A stretch of DNA of 31,532 bases, from contig DVII01000124.1 of assembly GCA_018711445.1 (NCBI GenBank), positions 1 through 31,532 on the forward strand, in the 5' to 3' direction. Below are positions 8,929-14,883 of the stretch, piece after piece (positions within the stretch are counted from its first letter, which is position 1; each line of letters opens with the position of its first letter). The notes beneath the pieces were generated by a model. It did not search any database. It was not told the origin of the DNA and saw nothing but the letters and a program-made list of their open reading frames with translations. A program made the translations under genes and the position numbers. The stretch comes from Candidatus Coprovivens excrementavium. Lineage in GTDB: Bacteria; Bacillota_I; Bacilli_A; RF39; UBA660.

Positions 8929-9942
8929 ATGATAAAAGTAGCAATTAATGGATTTGGAAGAATAGGAAGATTAGCTTTCCGTGAAATGATAACAGGAAGC
9001 GATTTTGATATTGTTGCAATCAATGATTTAACAGATGCTGAGACTTTAGCATATTTGCTAAAGTATGATACTAATCATCGTTCATTTCATGAAGATATTA
9101 TCAATTTTGAAGGCGATGAAATTGTCATAAAAGGAACTAAAAGAATTAAAGTGTATAGTGAAAAAGATCCTGTGAATTTACCATGGAATGATTTAGGGAT
9201 AGATGTTGTTTTAGAATGTACAGGACATTTTACAAGTATCGAGGATGCCTCTAAACATATAACTGCTGGTGCTAAAAAAGTTATTATTTCTGCTCCAGGA
9301 AAAGGTGACATGAAGACGATCGTTTACAATGTAAACTCTGATACCTTAGATGGAAGCGAAACAGTAATTTCTGCAGCGTCTTGTACTACAAATTGTCTTG
9401 CTCCAGTATTAAAAGTAATCGAAGATAATATTGGTATCGTAAAAGGTTATATGACAACTGTTCATGCTTATACAAACGATCAAGCAACACTTGATATTCC
9501 TCATAAGAAAGGAATCAAAGCTCGTCGTGGTCGTGCTTGCGCAATGAATATTGTTCCTGCTTCAACTGGTGCAGCTAGTGCTATAGGAAAAGTTATACCT
9601 TCTTTATTAGGTAAAATGGATGGTAATGCATTCCGCGTTCCAGTGCCAGATGGCTCAGTTATTGACGTTACTCTTGAATTAAGTAGAAATACAACGGTTG
9701 AAGAAATAAACACGTTGTTTACTAATAATCAAAACGAAACATTAAAAATTACTATGGATCCTGTTGTATCAAGTGATATTCTAGGTAAGAAAACAGGAGC
9801 ATTAGTTGATGGGTTACTAACTAATGTTTTAGAAAGCGAAGGGCGTCAATTAGTAAAAATTATTGCTTGGTATGATAACGAAATGGGTTATACAGCTCAA
9901 ATGATGCGTACCGCTAAAAAATTAATGAGTTTTAACAAATAA
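8929..9942 (+). CDS. gap: Type I glyceraldehyde-3-phosphate dehydrogenase, NAD-type
   Basis: GFGRIGR, NDL, ASCTTNCLAP (catalytic Cys), VHAYTNDQ and WYDNE motifs all canonical. Confidence 0.97.
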   Translation: MIKVAINGFGRIGRLAFREMITGSDFDIVAINDLTDAETLAYLLKYDTNHRSFHEDIINFEGDEIVIKGTKRIKVYSEKDPVNLPWNDLGIDVVLECTGHFTSIEDASKHITAGAKKVIISAPGKGDMKTIVYNVNSDTLDGSETVISAASCTTNCLAPVLKVIEDNIGIVKGYMTTVHAYTNDQATLDIPHKKGIKARRGRACAMNIVPASTGAASAIGKVIPSLLGKMDGNAFRVPVPDGSVIDVTLELSRNTTVEEINTLFTNNQNETLKITMDPVVSSDILGKKTGALVDGLLTNVLESEGRQLVKIIAWYDNEMGYTAQMMRTAKKLMSFNK

Positions 9943-9943
9943 T

Positions 9944-9968
9944 AAAGTGTCTATAAGGCACTTTTTTT
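9944..9968 (+). terminator. Intrinsic terminator after gap
   Basis: AAAGTGTC-tataa-GGCACTTT stem (one G-U pair) plus T tract. Confidence 0.7.
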
Positions 9969-9991
9969 ATGTAAAGACTTATTTTTAAAAA

Positions 9992-10020
9992 TTGAAGTCC
10001 ATCATTAAGTATTCTATAAT
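9992..10020 (+). promoter_or_regulatory. Sigma-A promoter for pgk-tpiA
   Basis: TTGAAG-17 bp-TATAAT. Confidence 0.6.
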
Positions 10021-10035
10021 TAAAGTGGTGATGAT

Positions 10036-11229
10036 ATGAAAAGAAGAATTCAAGACATGGATGTAAAAAACAAAAGAGTATTACTTAGATGTGACTTTAA
10101 TGTGCCTGTCAAAGATAACGTAATCTTAGATGATAGTAAAATAGTAGCTGCTTTAAACACTATTGAATATTTAATAAAAGAAGGAGCTAAAATTATCATC
10201 TTATCACACTTTGGTAAAGTAAAAACAGAAGAAGATAAAGCTAAAAACTCACTAGCTCCAATTGCTGCTCATCTTCAAAAATTAGTTAATACTAAAGTAA
10301 TTTTCTCAAAACAATCACGTAGTTTATACCTTGAAGCCAAAATCGAAAATATGAATCCAGGAGAGATTATAGTTTTAGAAAATACTCGTTTTGAAGATGT
10401 ACCTAATAAATTAGAAAGTGGAAATGATGTTCAACTTGCGATGTATTGGGCTGGTTTAGCCGATATTTTCTGCTTAGACGCTTTCGGTTCAGCTCATCGA
10501 AAACATGCTTCAACATATGGCGTTGCCAAATACTTGCCAAGTTGTATAGGTTTCTTAGTCCAACATGAAGTTGAAATGCTTGATACCTATATTCTAAGAG
10601 CGTCTCATCCTTTTACGATTGTAATGGGAGGTGCCAAAGTTGAGGATAAAGTTGAATTAATTGAATCACTTCTTCCACGCTGTGATCAATTATTACTAAC
10701 TGGTGGAATAGCAAATTCTTGTTTAGCTATTTTAGGATTTAGTGTAGGTAATTCCTTACGAACAACTGATACTGAAGTAATGAACAAGATAAAAAATATC
10801 TTAATTAAATATAAAGATAAAATCATGCTTCCAGTTGATGCAATAGTTGGTCGCGTTTACGATGAAAAATATGTAGAACATGTTAATATTGATAAAGTAG
10901 CTGAAGATGATATTATCTATGATATAGGAATCAAAACAATTAATAAATATGATGAAATAATTAAACAATCAAAAACAATTTTTGTTAATGGAACTGCTGG
11001 TAAATACGAAGATATTAGATTTGCTACAGGAACTAGAGAACTATTAACTCGCATAACTGACAGCAACGCGATAAAAGTTGTTGGTGGTGGAGATGGTGTA
11101 AGTGCAGTTAAACATTTCAAATTAGAAAATCGATTTAACTTCCTATCTACAGGAGGAGGAGCAACTTTAGAATATATAATTCAAGGTGGATTACCAGCTA
11201 TTGACAATATTCCTGATAGTGTAAAATGA
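10036..11229 (+). CDS. pgk: Phosphoglycerate kinase (divergent)
   Basis: RCDFNVP, ENTRF, DAFGSAHR, GGAKVEDK, GGGD and STGGGATLE motifs; some basic-patch substitutions. Confidence 0.93.
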   Translation: MKRRIQDMDVKNKRVLLRCDFNVPVKDNVILDDSKIVAALNTIEYLIKEGAKIIILSHFGKVKTEEDKAKNSLAPIAAHLQKLVNTKVIFSKQSRSLYLEAKIENMNPGEIIVLENTRFEDVPNKLESGNDVQLAMYWAGLADIFCLDAFGSAHRKHASTYGVAKYLPSCIGFLVQHEVEMLDTYILRASHPFTIVMGGAKVEDKVELIESLLPRCDQLLLTGGIANSCLAILGFSVGNSLRTTDTEVMNKIKNILIKYKDKIMLPVDAIVGRVYDEKYVEHVNIDKVAEDDIIYDIGIKTINKYDEIIKQSKTIFVNGTAGKYEDIRFATGTRELLTRITDSNAIKVVGGGDGVSAVKHFKLENRFNFLSTGGGATLEYIIQGGLPAIDNIPDSVK

Positions 11230-11951
11230 AATATTTAGTATGTAACTTAAAAGCTAACAAGATAAAAGAAGATTTGATTACATATGAAAAAGGAATATCT
11301 ACGATTAAGACAGTTCCTGATATTGAATTAATCATATGTCCCTCAACACCTTTCTTATATCTTTTTCAATCATCTAAATATAGTTTAGGAAGTCAAGATA
11401 TATCTCAATTTAACTTAGGACCATATACTGGAGAAACAACGGCTGAACAATTGCACTCTTTGAATGTCAAGTATTCATTAGTTGGTCATAGTGAAAGAAG
11501 AAATTTATTAAAAGAAGATGAACAAACAATTATAACAAAAATAAAAAAATCATATCATAGTCACATTCAACCTATTTATTTTATAGGTGAAACAGGTGAT
11601 AAAAAAGAAATAATAAATGAAACTTTAAAACAACAAATAATAAATATTATAGACGAAGTACCTGATTACAAGCGCCCTAAAATGATTATTGTTTATGAAC
11701 CAATATGGGCGATTGGAACAGGAATAGTTCCGACGAATAATGATATAGAAATACGTATAAAAAATATAAAAAGAATTATTGAAGAAAATTATAATTTAAA
11801 ACTTCCAGTATTATATGGTGGAAGTGTCAACGAAGATAATATAAATGAGTTAATTAAAATAGATGAATTAGATGGCTTTGTTTTAGGCGAGAGCTCAAAA
11901 GAATATAGCGAAGTAGAATATATTTATCAAAAGATTCAAAAAAATATCTAA
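11226..11951 (+). CDS. tpiA: Triosephosphate isomerase (divergent)
   Basis: NLKAN (catalytic Lys), GHSERR, YEPIWAIGTG and YGGSVN motifs; ATGA overlap with pgk. Confidence 0.92.
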   Translation: MKYLVCNLKANKIKEDLITYEKGISTIKTVPDIELIICPSTPFLYLFQSSKYSLGSQDISQFNLGPYTGETTAEQLHSLNVKYSLVGHSERRNLLKEDEQTIITKIKKSYHSHIQPIYFIGETGDKKEIINETLKQQIINIIDEVPDYKRPKMIIVYEPIWAIGTGIVPTNNDIEIRIKNIKRIIEENYNLKLPVLYGGSVNEDNINELIKIDELDGFVLGESSKEYSEVEYIYQKIQKNI

Positions 11952-11958
11952 GTCGACA
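11952..11958 (-). promoter_or_regulatory. 0A-box-like site upstream of the spo0A-like gene
   Basis: TGTCGAC on the minus strand (6/7 match to TGTCGAA), 57 bp upstream of the ATG. Confidence 0.35.
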
Positions 11959-12015
11959 AAATAATACATAATACCAAGACAGTATACTTTAAACTAAGAA
12001 CATAGAAAGAGAAAA

Positions 12016-12780
12016 ATGAATATGAAAAATAATATGAATACATTGGTAGTATGTAGTAAAGAAGAATCGAACAAACTTAAACAAGAAATAGCAGTTTTAA
12101 CAACTGAAATAACTATTAAATACACAGCGGACAATTACAAAGATGCATTGCAAATCATTAATAATTCTGATGATTTGGATGCAATATTAATTGATGGTAC
12201 AATGCCTGGAGAAAATATTTTGAATTTATTAACAAATTATAAAAATGAAATATTATTATCTAGAACTATCATCATTGATAACATTAAATTAGATTGCTAT
12301 AATTTATCAGCATCTAACTATCAAATATTCAATGTTATTCCTAAAAATTACAAAATAAATGAATTGATTATCTCTTTAAAAGAAATAAAGAATAAACAAG
12401 AAAAATATAATTTCCACAAGATATCAATCTATGATAAAGTAGCTGAGATATTAAAAAAATTAGGTATTGCTCCTGATAAAAATGGATTTCATTATTTAAG
12501 AAAAGCAATTTATGAATGTTACTTGGAGCCTTCATTATTAACTTCTATTACTAAAGAAATATATCCTATGTTAGCTGCATCTTTTTCTAAAAAAGAAAGT
12601 TGTATCGAGAGGTCAATTAGAAGTGCAATTGAAACAGGTTGGGATCGTGGAAATTACGAATATTCTAATGAATTATTTTCCAATTGTGTAGATTACTATA
12701 AAACAAAGCCAACTAATGGAGAATTTATAGCTATTATAGTTGACAAAATAATGATGGAAGAAGGAAGAACAATTTATTAA
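12016..12780 (+). CDS. spo0A: Spo0A-family transcription factor with an atypical receiver domain
   Basis: C-terminal LGI-PDKNGFHYLRKAI...ITKEIYP...ERSIRSAIE..W.RGN...KPTNGEFIA matches the Spo0A effector domain; N-terminus has LIDGTMP at the receiver beta3 position. Confidence 0.85.
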   Translation: MNMKNNMNTLVVCSKEESNKLKQEIAVLTTEITIKYTADNYKDALQIINNSDDLDAILIDGTMPGENILNLLTNYKNEILLSRTIIIDNIKLDCYNLSASNYQIFNVIPKNYKINELIISLKEIKNKQEKYNFHKISIYDKVAEILKKLGIAPDKNGFHYLRKAIYECYLEPSLLTSITKEIYPMLAASFSKKESCIERSIRSAIETGWDRGNYEYSNELFSNCVDYYKTKPTNGEFIAIIVDKIMMEEGRTIY

Positions 12781-12818
12781 AAAAGAAATTACTTGCCTAC
12801 CTTGTAATTTCTTTTTTT
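12779..12818 (+). terminator. Intrinsic terminator after spo0A
   Basis: AAAAAAGAAATTAC / GTAATTTCTTTTTT 14-bp inverted repeat with an 11-nt loop. Confidence 0.75.
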
Positions 12819-12831
12819 GTTGTGCTATTAT
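12802..12831 (+). promoter_or_regulatory. Possible promoter for the gpmI-like gene overlapping the terminator
   Basis: TTGTAA-18 bp-TATTAT with TG extension. Confidence 0.35.
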
Positions 12832-12850
12832 GTTAATAGGAGAAATGCTT

Positions 12851-14365
12851 ATGAAGAAGATTTTAACAATTATATTGGATGGCTTTGGAATGCGTGAAGA
12901 TATTTATGGTAACGCTGTGAAAAATGCCGGAATGAACAATTTCATCGATATTTGGAATAACTACCCGCACTGTTTGTTAAAAGCTAGCGGTTCTTCAGTT
13001 GGCCTACCTGATAAACAATGTAGTAGCAGCGAATTAGGTCATGAAATAATAGGAACAGGTCGTTTAATTGAAAATGCTCTTGATGAAATAAATGAAGTTT
13101 TTAAAAGGGAACGCCTAAAATATAATCCTAAATATAATGAAATGATTAATTATTTATCTAATAACCCAACCAGAAGTCTTCATATATTTCATTTATTATC
13201 TGATGGTGGCGTTTCTTCACATATAAATCATCTAAAATGTTTTTTAAATACCCTTAGTCACGATAAAGTAGAAAATAAAATCTATCTTCATTTAGCTGCT
13301 GACGGCCGTGATTCAGATAAACATAAAATATATACATATCTTAAAGAAATTGAAAATAATATTTCTAATAATGTTAAGTTAGCTTCAATTTGTGGTCGTT
13401 ATTATGCTTTAGATGATACAAAAGATTATAAGAGAACAAAAATGTTTTATGACTTGTTATTTGATGGACGAGGTATAGATGCTAAAAATTTACCGCGTTT
13501 TATTGAAAAATGCTATGAAAAGAAACTCTCAGATGAATACTTACCGCCATTAAAAACAAATGACTTTCAAACTCTAGATAATAATGATGTTTTAATCTTT
13601 TTAAATTTTAGTAAAGAAAATCAACTTCAATTATTAGATGCGATATGTAATAAAGACTTTATTGAATTTAATAATTATTCTTTAAATATAAAAGTTTATA
13701 GTTTATTTGAAATAGATAAACATATTAATACCAATTATTTCTTTGAAATGCCAAAAAACAAACATACCCTAACTGAATATTTAGCCGGCCTTGGTTTAAC
13801 TCAAGCTCATATATATGAAAGTATAAAAAATAGTTCTATGAGTTATTACCTAAATGGCAAAAGATATTTAAAGTTAGAAAATTGTGATATCTATAGCATT
13901 GATTCGCCAGTGGTTGATAGCTTTGATTTAAAACCTGAAATGAACGCTTTATCTGTTGCTAAAACAATTATTAAATGCATGGAAAAAGATTATGACTTTA
14001 TATTAGCTAATTTCGCCAATCCTGATGAAGTAGGACATACAGGCAATTATCAAGCAACAATAAATGGCTTACAAGCTGTTGATGTATGTTTAGGCAAAAT
14101 ATTAGAAGTTGCCGAAGAAAATTTTTATAAAGTAATTATAACTTCAAGTCACGCTAATGCTGATACGATTATCGATCGCAATAATAATATAATAACCAAA
14201 AACACATTAAGTCCTGTGCCTTTTATAATAATGGACAAAAAATACAAGTTGAAAAATGGAACGTTAACAAGTTTTGCTCCGACACTTTTAAAGTACATGG
14301 ATATTGCTATCCCTAAAGAGATGAAGGATGCAGAAATTTTAATCGAAAAAAATAAAATATCATGA
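12851..14365 (+). CDS. gpmI: 2,3-bisphosphoglycerate-independent phosphoglycerate mutase homolog with a degenerate active site
   Basis: ILDGFG, SELGH, LSDGGV, DGRD, GRYY, DLKPEM and NFANPDEVGHTG motifs give the family; several catalytic residues are substituted. Start set at ATG 12851 behind AGGAGA. Confidence 0.88.
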   Translation: MKKILTIILDGFGMREDIYGNAVKNAGMNNFIDIWNNYPHCLLKASGSSVGLPDKQCSSSELGHEIIGTGRLIENALDEINEVFKRERLKYNPKYNEMINYLSNNPTRSLHIFHLLSDGGVSSHINHLKCFLNTLSHDKVENKIYLHLAADGRDSDKHKIYTYLKEIENNISNNVKLASICGRYYALDDTKDYKRTKMFYDLLFDGRGIDAKNLPRFIEKCYEKKLSDEYLPPLKTNDFQTLDNNDVLIFLNFSKENQLQLLDAICNKDFIEFNNYSLNIKVYSLFEIDKHINTNYFFEMPKNKHTLTEYLAGLGLTQAHIYESIKNSSMSYYLNGKRYLKLENCDIYSIDSPVVDSFDLKPEMNALSVAKTIIKCMEKDYDFILANFANPDEVGHTGNYQATINGLQAVDVCLGKILEVAEENFYKVIITSSHANADTIIDRNNNIITKNTLSPVPFIIMDKKYKLKNGTLTSFAPTLLKYMDIAIPKEMKDAEILIEKNKIS

Positions 14366-14387
14366 GTAATTTTCGTGATATTTTTTT
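14354..14387 (+). terminator. Intrinsic terminator after gpmI
   Basis: AAAATATCATGA / TCGTGATATTTT stem (one G-U pair) plus T tract. Confidence 0.7.
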
Positions 14388-14413
14388 AAATATTGAAAAA
14401 TTTAACTTTTTTC

Positions 14414-14442
14414 TTGCATTTATCGAGCTTTATTGCTATAAT
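14414..14442 (+). promoter_or_regulatory. Strong sigma-A promoter of the S10 superoperon
   Basis: TTGCAT-17 bp-TATAAT with TG extension. Confidence 0.8.
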
Positions 14443-14448
14443 TAAAAA

Positions 14449-14577
14449 CGTATGACTGCTTAGATGTGTGAGGTTGCCGATACACTAGGATGAGTTGTTT
14501 ATATTTTATCTTAAATTTATCGGGGAATTCATTACGGAGCAAGTCTATACTAGATATAGACGAAGGGAGGACATAAA
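14449..14577 (+). ncRNA. Structured 5' leader of rpsJ (candidate r-protein leader)
   Basis: About 130-nt leader, more GC-rich than its flanks. Contains GAGGTTGCCGATACAC, ACGGAG and a GTCTATA-ctaga-TATAGAC hairpin abutting the SD; resembles Bacilli rpsJ leaders as recalled. Confidence 0.55.
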
Positions 14578-14883
14578 ATGTCAAGTAACAAAGTTCGCAT
14601 CACTCTAAAAGCTTATGATCATAGATTATTAGATTTAGCTTGCGGAAAAATTGTTGAAACTGTTAAAAGAACTGGGGGAGAAGTTGTTGGTCCAGTGCCA
14701 CTTCCAACTGAAGTTGAAAAAATCACTGTACTAAGAGCTGTACATAAATATAAGGACTCTAGAGAACAATTTGAAAGCCGTACTCATAAGAGACTTATTG
14801 ATATTAAAAACCCAACAAAAGAAACTGTTGAAGCACTTGCTCACTTAGATATTCCAAGTGGTGTTGCTATTAACATAAAATAA
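14578..14883 (+). CDS. rpsJ: 30S ribosomal protein S10
   Basis: [31 protein letters not shown]. Confidence 0.98.

Follow-up and report, generated by a model that had tools for sequence, protein, structure and literature searches.

What becomes of a central metabolic gene once its genus holds a second copy of it? This question is raised by a 31,532-nucleotide stretch of DNA from Candidatus Coprovivens excrementavium (assembly GCA_018711445.1, contig DVII01000124.1, positions 1 to 31,532; the whole stretch is called the window here, and its contig C42). Candidatus Coprovivens, a genus first found in chicken faeces, is placed in family CAG-1000 of the order RF39 (PMC8035907). Between glycolytic and ribosomal protein genes, the window carries a homologue of gpmI, the gene for cofactor-independent phosphoglycerate mutase (iPGM). 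We call this homologue gpmI′. A preliminary description, made from the letters alone, had seen in it an intact, full-length GpmI homologue with a dismantled active site, a probable pseudoenzyme that had taken a new role rather than simply decayed. Here we show that gpmI′ is a resident gene that was displaced by a xenologue, lost mutase-defining residues and was retained at full length under selection throughout its genus. Its actual function is very probably not the annotated one.

The active site of gpmI′

The gpmI′ open reading frame (ORF) covers positions 12851-14365; this and all further features lie on the forward strand. Its stop-free translation of 504 amino acids matches the Pfam families Metalloenzyme (PF01676, 173.7 bits) and iPGM_N (PF06415). 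The NCBIfam equivalog TIGR01307 gives 406.4 bits, over its cut-off of 330.65, and the stricter model NF003897 is failed (287 versus 862). The best solved relative is the iPGM of Geobacillus stearothermophilus, 1EJJ (E 6e-93, 36% identity). We built an AlphaFold (AF2) model on 44 sequences, and it reached a predicted local distance difference test score (pLDDT) of 91.3 and a predicted template-modelling score (pTM) of 0.90, with the lowest confidence at residues 11-30 and 431-450. The predicted two-domain fold superposes on the substrate-bound 1EJJ with a template-modelling (TM) score of 0.93, and likewise on 1O98, and matches the closed form of iPGM. Thus, the gene is as intact as had been described, with no stop and a confidently predicted fold.

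Using the residue numbering of 1EJJ, we placed the catalytic positions by a HMMER alignment and by a separate codon mapping. Five motifs are altered between 1EJJ and gpmI′: GGVHSH to GGVSSH, YYSMDR to YYALDD, NFRPDR to NFSKEN, TADH to TSSH, and TAHT to TKNT. Every substitution listed in the preliminary description came out at the very same codon. In the substrate pocket these are H123 to Ser (S122 of gpmI′, 13214-13216), R191 to Asp (D189, 13415-13417), and R261 to Ser with R264 to Asn (S254 to N257, 13610-13621, the two codons starting at 13610 and 13619). In the metal sites they are D444 to Ser (S433, in the S433-H434 pair at 14147-14152) and H462 to Asn (N451, 14201-14203). We found two further changes, H339 to Ser (S329, 13835-13837; placed by the alignment of relatives and the mapping) and a Met to Glu replacement beside D403 that turns NPDMVGH into NPDEVGH (residue 393). 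The retained residues reported earlier also hold: D12 (D10, 12878-12880), the phospho-accepting nucleophile S62 (S60, 13028-13030), R153 and D154, R185, K336, D403 and H407 (D392 to H396, 14024-14038; mapping and column comparison), and H445 (H434). H66 is likewise kept.

In the iPGM of Caenorhabditis elegans, metal site 1 consists of Asp/His/His and metal site 2 of Asp/Ser/Asp/His (PMC5382265). From this composition, H462N removes a ligand of site 1 (D403, H407, H462) and D444S removes a ligand of site 2 (D12, S62, D444, H445), so both sites are incomplete in gpmI′. Five of the seven metal-site residues, the nucleophilic serine included, are kept and two are replaced. The basic phosphoglycerate pocket (H123, R153, R185, R191, R261, R264) is left with R153 and R185 only. 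Seven of the altered positions (H123, R191, R261, R264, H339, D444 and H462) are invariant in all 74 canonical sequences that we examined, so the substitution pattern is far from chance.

To see how these residues behave in relatives, we counted them in 121 cluster representatives that are 57-100% identical to gpmI′. D12, H66, D154 and H445 are present in all 121, R185 and H407 in 120, and D403 in 119. The nucleophile position holds only Ser (114) or Thr (7), and position 336 holds Lys in 106 and Arg in 14. The replacements are themselves conserved: Asn at 462 is found in 121/121, and residue 444 is Ser (101) or Thr (12) in 113/121. Ser or Thr occupies position 123, which is His in all canonical copies, in 115 representatives, while N264 and S339 occur in 99 each. 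The R191 position is hypervariable, with 14 different residues in the clade (Glu, Asp or Asn in 73/121). Canonical enzymes have 69 columns with at least 95% conservation; the clade retains 42 of these, switches 7 to a new conserved residue and relaxes 20. Residues invariant specifically in the clade concentrate at 14-32, 405-408 and 439-451, the phosphatase-domain segments that bear the metal-site residues.

The active site had been called dismantled. The losses behind that word are real, but it overstates them, since the nucleophile, six residues that contact metal or phosphate, and D154 and R185 are invariant. The centre looks remodelled rather than abandoned at the level of its residues, with the two lost metal ligands exchanged for a fixed Ser/Thr and a fixed Asn.

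The same exchange was met outside the genus. A genome from another genus of the family (G073) and five metagenomic relatives of its gene (80-91% identical) again carry D444S together with H462N, and this lineage keeps D12, S62, H66, K336, D403, H407 and H445. In our tree it is sister to its canonical congener, and it is a second, independent lineage with this pair of substitutions. Among the 150 nearest representatives clustered at 50% identity, 14 bear catalytic substitutions, with D444S/T and H462N recurring.

A resident gene and an incoming copy

A second mutase gene had been suggested as something to look for, either gpmI or gpmA. The assembly measures 2.22 Mb in 345 contigs, with 82% completeness and 28% G+C. 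Searching it, we found a second iPGM gene on another contig (C308) that scores 652 bits against TIGR01307 and has all catalytic residues canonical. A cofactor-dependent mutase (dPGM) as a hidden extra enzyme was rejected for this assembly, where the two His_Phos_1 genes (C146 and C311) stay far under every gpmA cut-off. Both gpmI copies are present in 22/24 congeneric genomes; the two genomes that do not carry both have a completeness of 73% and 85%.

The degenerate gpmI′ sits in the same slot, pgk-(tpi)-spo0A-like-gpmI′-rpsJ, in 23/24 congeneric genomes. This slot is found family-wide in the form pgk-(tpi)-spo0A-like-gpmI-S10. In the other genera examined it holds a canonical gpmI, mostly the sole iPGM of the genome, with four exceptions (G073, G105, G091 and G099); H125, which varies even among canonical enzymes, was set aside in this scoring. 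The operonic genes of other genera are 38-48% identical to gpmI′, and the genus's own canonical copy only 33-37%. In a maximum-likelihood tree of 100 sequences, the degenerate clade is monophyletic (support 100) and nested in a clade of operonic canonical genes (support 100). The canonical copies of the genus form a group (support 98) together with operonic genes from three further genera.

We also considered a duplication within the genus as the source of both copies. Forcing it on the tree costs 137 log-likelihood units and yields p 0.0006 in the approximately unbiased (AU) test, for a group that was defined after the tree had been seen; with the tree itself, this led us to reject it. From the tree and the AU test together, gpmI′ is the resident orthologue, and the canonical copy came in as a xenologue from another part of the family. 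On this phylogenetic evidence, gpmI′ is shown to be the ancestral operon-resident gpmI of this family of RF39-type gut Bacilli.

Some of the iPGM genes in the sample form a distinct, long-branched canonical type of 520-540 amino acids (L062 in G016, L092 in G099, L109-L110 in genus g39, and L061 in another family). This type is scattered over genomes, one congener included, and at least one further lateral acquisition follows from that. As to the next step of glycolysis, a search for enolase (TIGR01060) came up empty in this assembly, in the sister species G009 and in G023 (7 contigs, 92% complete). An enolase gene is present in G001, G005 and G018, and it shares a contig with the canonical gpmI in G005 and G018.

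Outside the genus, we then inspected the catalytic residues of iPGM genes from 52 genomes of the family. None of the 45 genomes in which gpmI was the only mutase found had catalytic substitutions, versus four of the seven with a second mutase. The four substituted operonic copies belong to G073 and G105, where the other mutase is gpmA, and to G091 and G099, where it is another iPGM. The gpmA of G073 is acquired; its congener G045 has a canonical gpmI and no gpmA. As the genomes are related, this backup rule is a pattern and not a formal test. Since the substitutions occur solely where another mutase is present, gpmI′ almost certainly no longer acts as a phosphoglycerate mutase, and the other copy does that job, so far as gene content and residues can tell.

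Could gpmI′ still be a mutase, as a second isozyme with a variant active site? Its 406 bits against TIGR01307 (above 330.65), its location in the glycolytic cluster and a predicted fold that fits the closed iPGM form would agree with this. We consider it extremely improbable: seven positions are changed that no canonical sequence changes, such changes appear in 0/45 genomes where the gene is the only mutase, and one independent case (G073) has acquired gpmA while the congener with the canonical gene has none.

Mutase genes turn over often in this family. gpmA is present in 27/150 family genomes, and 23/150 have no iPGM match. Of the 20 iPGM-less genomes listed, 19 have gpmA, the exception being G113; three further iPGM-less genomes stand outside the list. 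gpmI and gpmA occur together in only five genomes of the 150, so deletion is the common fate of a replaced gpmI, and the long retention of gpmI′ is not the default. Frequent non-homologous replacement, gpmA for gpmI, is thus seen in a family of small genomes. In one genome (G092), the sole iPGM gene (L117, contig C63) is split in two overlapping ORFs of 307 and 340 amino acids, by a frameshift or an assembly error; R191T is its one departure from the canonical catalytic residues, and that genome showed no gpmA.

Such turnover has been described before. Passages of a survey by Foster et al. 2010 (PMC2964296) report gains, losses and lateral transfers of bacterial phosphoglycerate mutases, and the present family, with gpmA in 27/150 genomes, gpmI mostly gone from them, and xenologous second iPGMs, resembles what those passages describe. 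There, the four genomes with two iPGMs are explained by a pseudogene, a recent duplication and, in two cases, lateral transfer; an intact, selected copy with altered catalytic residues, as gpmI′ is, does not figure in these passages.

Selection on gpmI′ and its possible role

We estimated the ratio of nonsynonymous to synonymous substitution rates (dN/dS, ω) by NG86, as YN00 gave no value for most pairs. gpmI′ shows ω of 0.04-0.14 in close species pairs, values that are rough, though far from 1, because dS is about 1, near saturation, even in the closest pairs. In the same genome pairs, the spo0A-like gene gave 0.03-0.06; tpi mostly fell at 0.13-0.19, except for a value of 0.045 in one saturated pair. 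Hence gpmI′ is under purifying selection as tight as or tighter than that on the neighbouring tpi. By domain, ω of gpmI′ is 0.03-0.07 in the phosphatase part and 0.05-0.25 in the transferase part, which holds the substrate and has about twice the phosphatase dN in most pairs. The additional amino-acid change of gpmI′ is concentrated in the transferase part. In the phosphatase part, the ω range overlaps with the one seen for the working canonical enzyme, whose own two domains do not differ consistently.

These data bear on the simplest alternative, that gpmI′ has been functionally replaced and is a relic merely awaiting deletion or breakage. A backup mutase is always present beside the degenerate active site, and the amino-acid sequence of gpmI′ changes about 3-4 times faster than that of the canonical copy in the same genome pairs, as a relic would. 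The selection data largely refute it nonetheless: the gene is intact in 23 species that have diverged down to 53% identity, with the low dN/dS given above. Moreover, the genomes are of 0.8-2.4 Mb, a setting where replacement by gpmA usually ends in loss of gpmI, and the replacement residues themselves are fixed. We therefore regard a relic as very unlikely. The earlier idea of a new role in place of simple decay gains support from the purifying selection, the conserved substitutions and the second, canonical gpmI.

What role could this be? We think it somewhat probable, from the pattern of kept and lost residues, that gpmI′ is not dead but a neo-functionalised protein of the alkaline phosphatase superfamily that keeps its phosphate site. 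The resident gpmI gave up four residues that bind phosphoglycerate, and one ligand per metal site, when a normal second copy was already there. A kept phosphate centre is suggested by the invariance of H66, D154, R185 and Lys/Arg336, by a nucleophile position held only by Ser or Thr, and by lost ligands that gave way to fixed, oxygen-donating side chains; a phosphatase domain about as constrained as in working enzymes points the same way. gpmI′ may still bind a phosphoryl group at the remodelled centre and possibly hydrolyse or transfer phosphate. Its ligand would be much less anionic than phosphoglycerate, because four basic residues of the pocket have become Ser, Asn, or an acidic or polar residue. 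We infer that a mutase deprived of its hold on glycerate for re-phosphorylation would become phosphatase-like.

A more specific proposal is tentative, and we hold it more doubtful than not. The fixed D-(S/T)-H ... D-H ... (S/T)-H ... N centre could form a new phosphatase or phosphotransferase on the iPGM scaffold, acting on a non-carboxylate, possibly amine-bearing, phosphoester; such an enzyme would have arisen from a displaced glycolytic enzyme, with D444S plus H462N reached independently in at least two RF39 lineages.

Some points, the roughness of the ω values among them, weigh against a neo-functionalised enzyme with a kept phosphate site. At each metal site, one ligand that every working iPGM has is missing, and by that token catalysis of any kind may be gone. 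Several degenerate relatives among the 150 nearest cluster representatives have also lost the nucleophile (S62 to Glu, Gly, Asn or Cys). Intact iPGM-like genes therefore persist without the catalytic serine, which favours a non-catalytic role. A further point concerns the canonical copy. C308 is a 5.7-kb contig with 99.5% DNA identity to the sister species G009, versus 86% for the window contig C42, and the canonical genes of this assembly and G009 differ by a dS of only 0.026 versus 1.1 for gpmI′ of the same pair. C308 may thus be mis-binned or recently exchanged; these identities, with the 2.2 Mb size and the 345 contigs, suggest a mixed bin or a very recent exchange. The two-copy state itself does not depend on C308, because both copies are found in 22/24 congeners. 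The C308 sequence continues on C158, which is 100% identical to G009.

A non-catalytic pseudoenzyme is accordingly the rival that we take most seriously, though we doubt it. The iPGM fold would then be kept for binding, scaffolding or regulation, for instance through a prior moonlighting role of the operonic enzyme, and the core would serve the fold or a metal-dependent stability. This would account for one missing ligand per metal site and four lost pocket residues, for intact ORFs in related lineages after loss of the nucleophile, and for purifying selection that spans the whole protein. It accounts less readily for contacts to phosphate or substrate other than through metal (H66, D154, R185 and Lys/Arg336) that are invariant in 120-121 of the 121 representatives, or for a nucleophile position that is only Ser or Thr, as a pure scaffold has no obvious need of a conserved core. 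gpmI′ combines an enzyme fold, missing essential catalytic residues and maintenance by selection, and in this operational sense it is a pseudoenzyme. Of the earlier label of a probable pseudoenzyme, the loss of residues and the maintenance of the gene stand; pseudoenzyme status in the stricter sense is not established, since the core is remodelled.

Comparing gpmI′ with known systems, we find the two-domain fold (TM 0.93, 36% identity), the position in a glycolytic cluster and the Ser nucleophile in common with GpmI (TIGR01307; 1EJJ and 1O98). Unlike GpmI, it lacks the seven residues named above and is not the sole iPGM homologue in its genus. Precedents for an iPGM-like metalloenzyme core in other phosphotransfer reactions are the TIGR02535 family ('proposed homoserine kinase') and phosphopentomutase. 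gpmI′ matches both weakly and lies outside them, with scores far under the cut-offs (26 versus 446 bits for TIGR02535, 23 versus 256 bits for phosphopentomutase), and it is clearly derived from bacterial GpmI. The trypanosomatid AdoMetDC prozyme (PMC5201418) is, like gpmI′, an intact paralogue without catalytic residues that is selected beside an active copy. In contrast to the prozyme, nothing points to a complex of gpmI′ with its active counterpart, and here the degenerate copy is ancestral and the active copy is the newcomer.

An enzyme paralogue that has lost catalytic residues and is kept by selection is thus of a kind already known. Two features are unusual here: it is the ancestral gene that became degenerate, and one pair of ligand substitutions arose more than once, independently. 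In the literature searched, no intact iPGM with such changes is described. The locus offers a clean natural example of a central metabolic enzyme that, after lateral replacement, is usually lost and here persists genus-wide with its active site rebuilt. An active remodelled centre would mean new chemistry on the iPGM scaffold; with an inactive one, gpmI′ would be a bacterial pseudoenzyme with a partner to be sought. D444S/T with H462N, recurring in separate lineages, gives a defined substitution pair. Because the equivalog model still names gpmI′ a phosphoglycerate mutase, metabolic reconstructions credit these gut bacteria with one mutase more than they have, and such reconstructions would err wherever only gpmI′ is binned.

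Expression signals and neighbouring genes

The ribosome-binding site noted earlier is a Shine-Dalgarno AGGAG at 12838-12842, 8 nt ahead of the ATG of gpmI′. We place the start at 12851 and not at the in-frame upstream ATG at 12830, because M1-K2-K3 is invariant among homologues. A terminator had also been proposed for gpmI′. A 7-bp hairpin spanning the stop codon, followed by a U run, is indeed there and is the only candidate 3′ of the gene, but its folding z-score is modest (-1.7), and a consensus terminator scan of 11900-14650 made no call. Between the spo0A-like gene and gpmI′ lies an intrinsic-terminator-like 14-bp hairpin with a U run (12779-12817; -11.8 kcal/mol, z -6.0, 0/200 shuffles as good). 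This A/U-rich element was detected by folding only and was missed by the consensus scan.

For expression, we mapped three metatranscriptome runs and one DNA run against 11226-14883. RNA contigs from related strains, at very low depth, covered rpsJ, parts of tpi and the start of the spo0A-like gene, and gpmI′ was uncovered at this depth. The codon adaptation index, taken against the ribosomal protein genes of the window, is 0.64 for gpmI′ and 0.70 for the canonical copy; with a genome of 28% G+C and both copies within the genome bulk, it is uninformative for gpmI′.

The window runs from ftsE/ftsX-like genes and an M23 peptidase through yvcK, whiA and a uridine-kinase-like gene to gap, pgk, tpi, a regulator with a Spo0A_C domain, gpmI′ and the S10 operon. 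On family models and synteny, gap-pgk-tpi (8929-11951) forms a glycolytic cluster with gpmI′ in its ancestral gpmI slot, and rpsJ (14578-14883), the first S10-operon gene, is the conserved downstream neighbour. By eye, TTGCAT, a 17-nt spacer ending in TGC, and TATAAT (an extended -10) are seen at 14414-14442, 5′ of the S10 leader; they are absent from the consensus scan.

The conserved upstream neighbour is the Spo0A_C-domain regulator (12016-12780; family models, synteny and alignment), which has a degenerate receiver. In the genus, this receiver has CS in place of the acidic pair DD and has lost both the switch Thr/Ser and the KP Lys motif, leaving only the Asp at the acceptor position. The reading is xxDDN...DLIMPxxDG in the majority of other family genera, and DN or DS in the genera nearest to this one. 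Since receiver and gpmI′ are both altered in this genus, both neighbours were remodelled on the same lineage. A predicted complex of gpmI′ with this regulator scored 0.00, which is evidence neither for nor against binding.

Several congeners (L013, L014, L020-L022, L024, L026 and L027) have the spo0A-like gene directly after pgk, with no intervening tpi. Where present, tpi changes quickly: in the two closest species it is 77% identical, with ω 0.18. The tpi of the window stays under the TIGR00419 cut-off (97.8 versus 130.6). The stretch is matched at 78-87% of sampled words, mostly by chicken-gut metagenomes, in keeping with the chicken-faeces origin of the genus. One chicken-gut metagenome contig that spans the whole stretch has an extra A in the A-run at position 14345, six codons before the gpmI′ stop, and this would alter the final few residues of gpmI′ in that strain.

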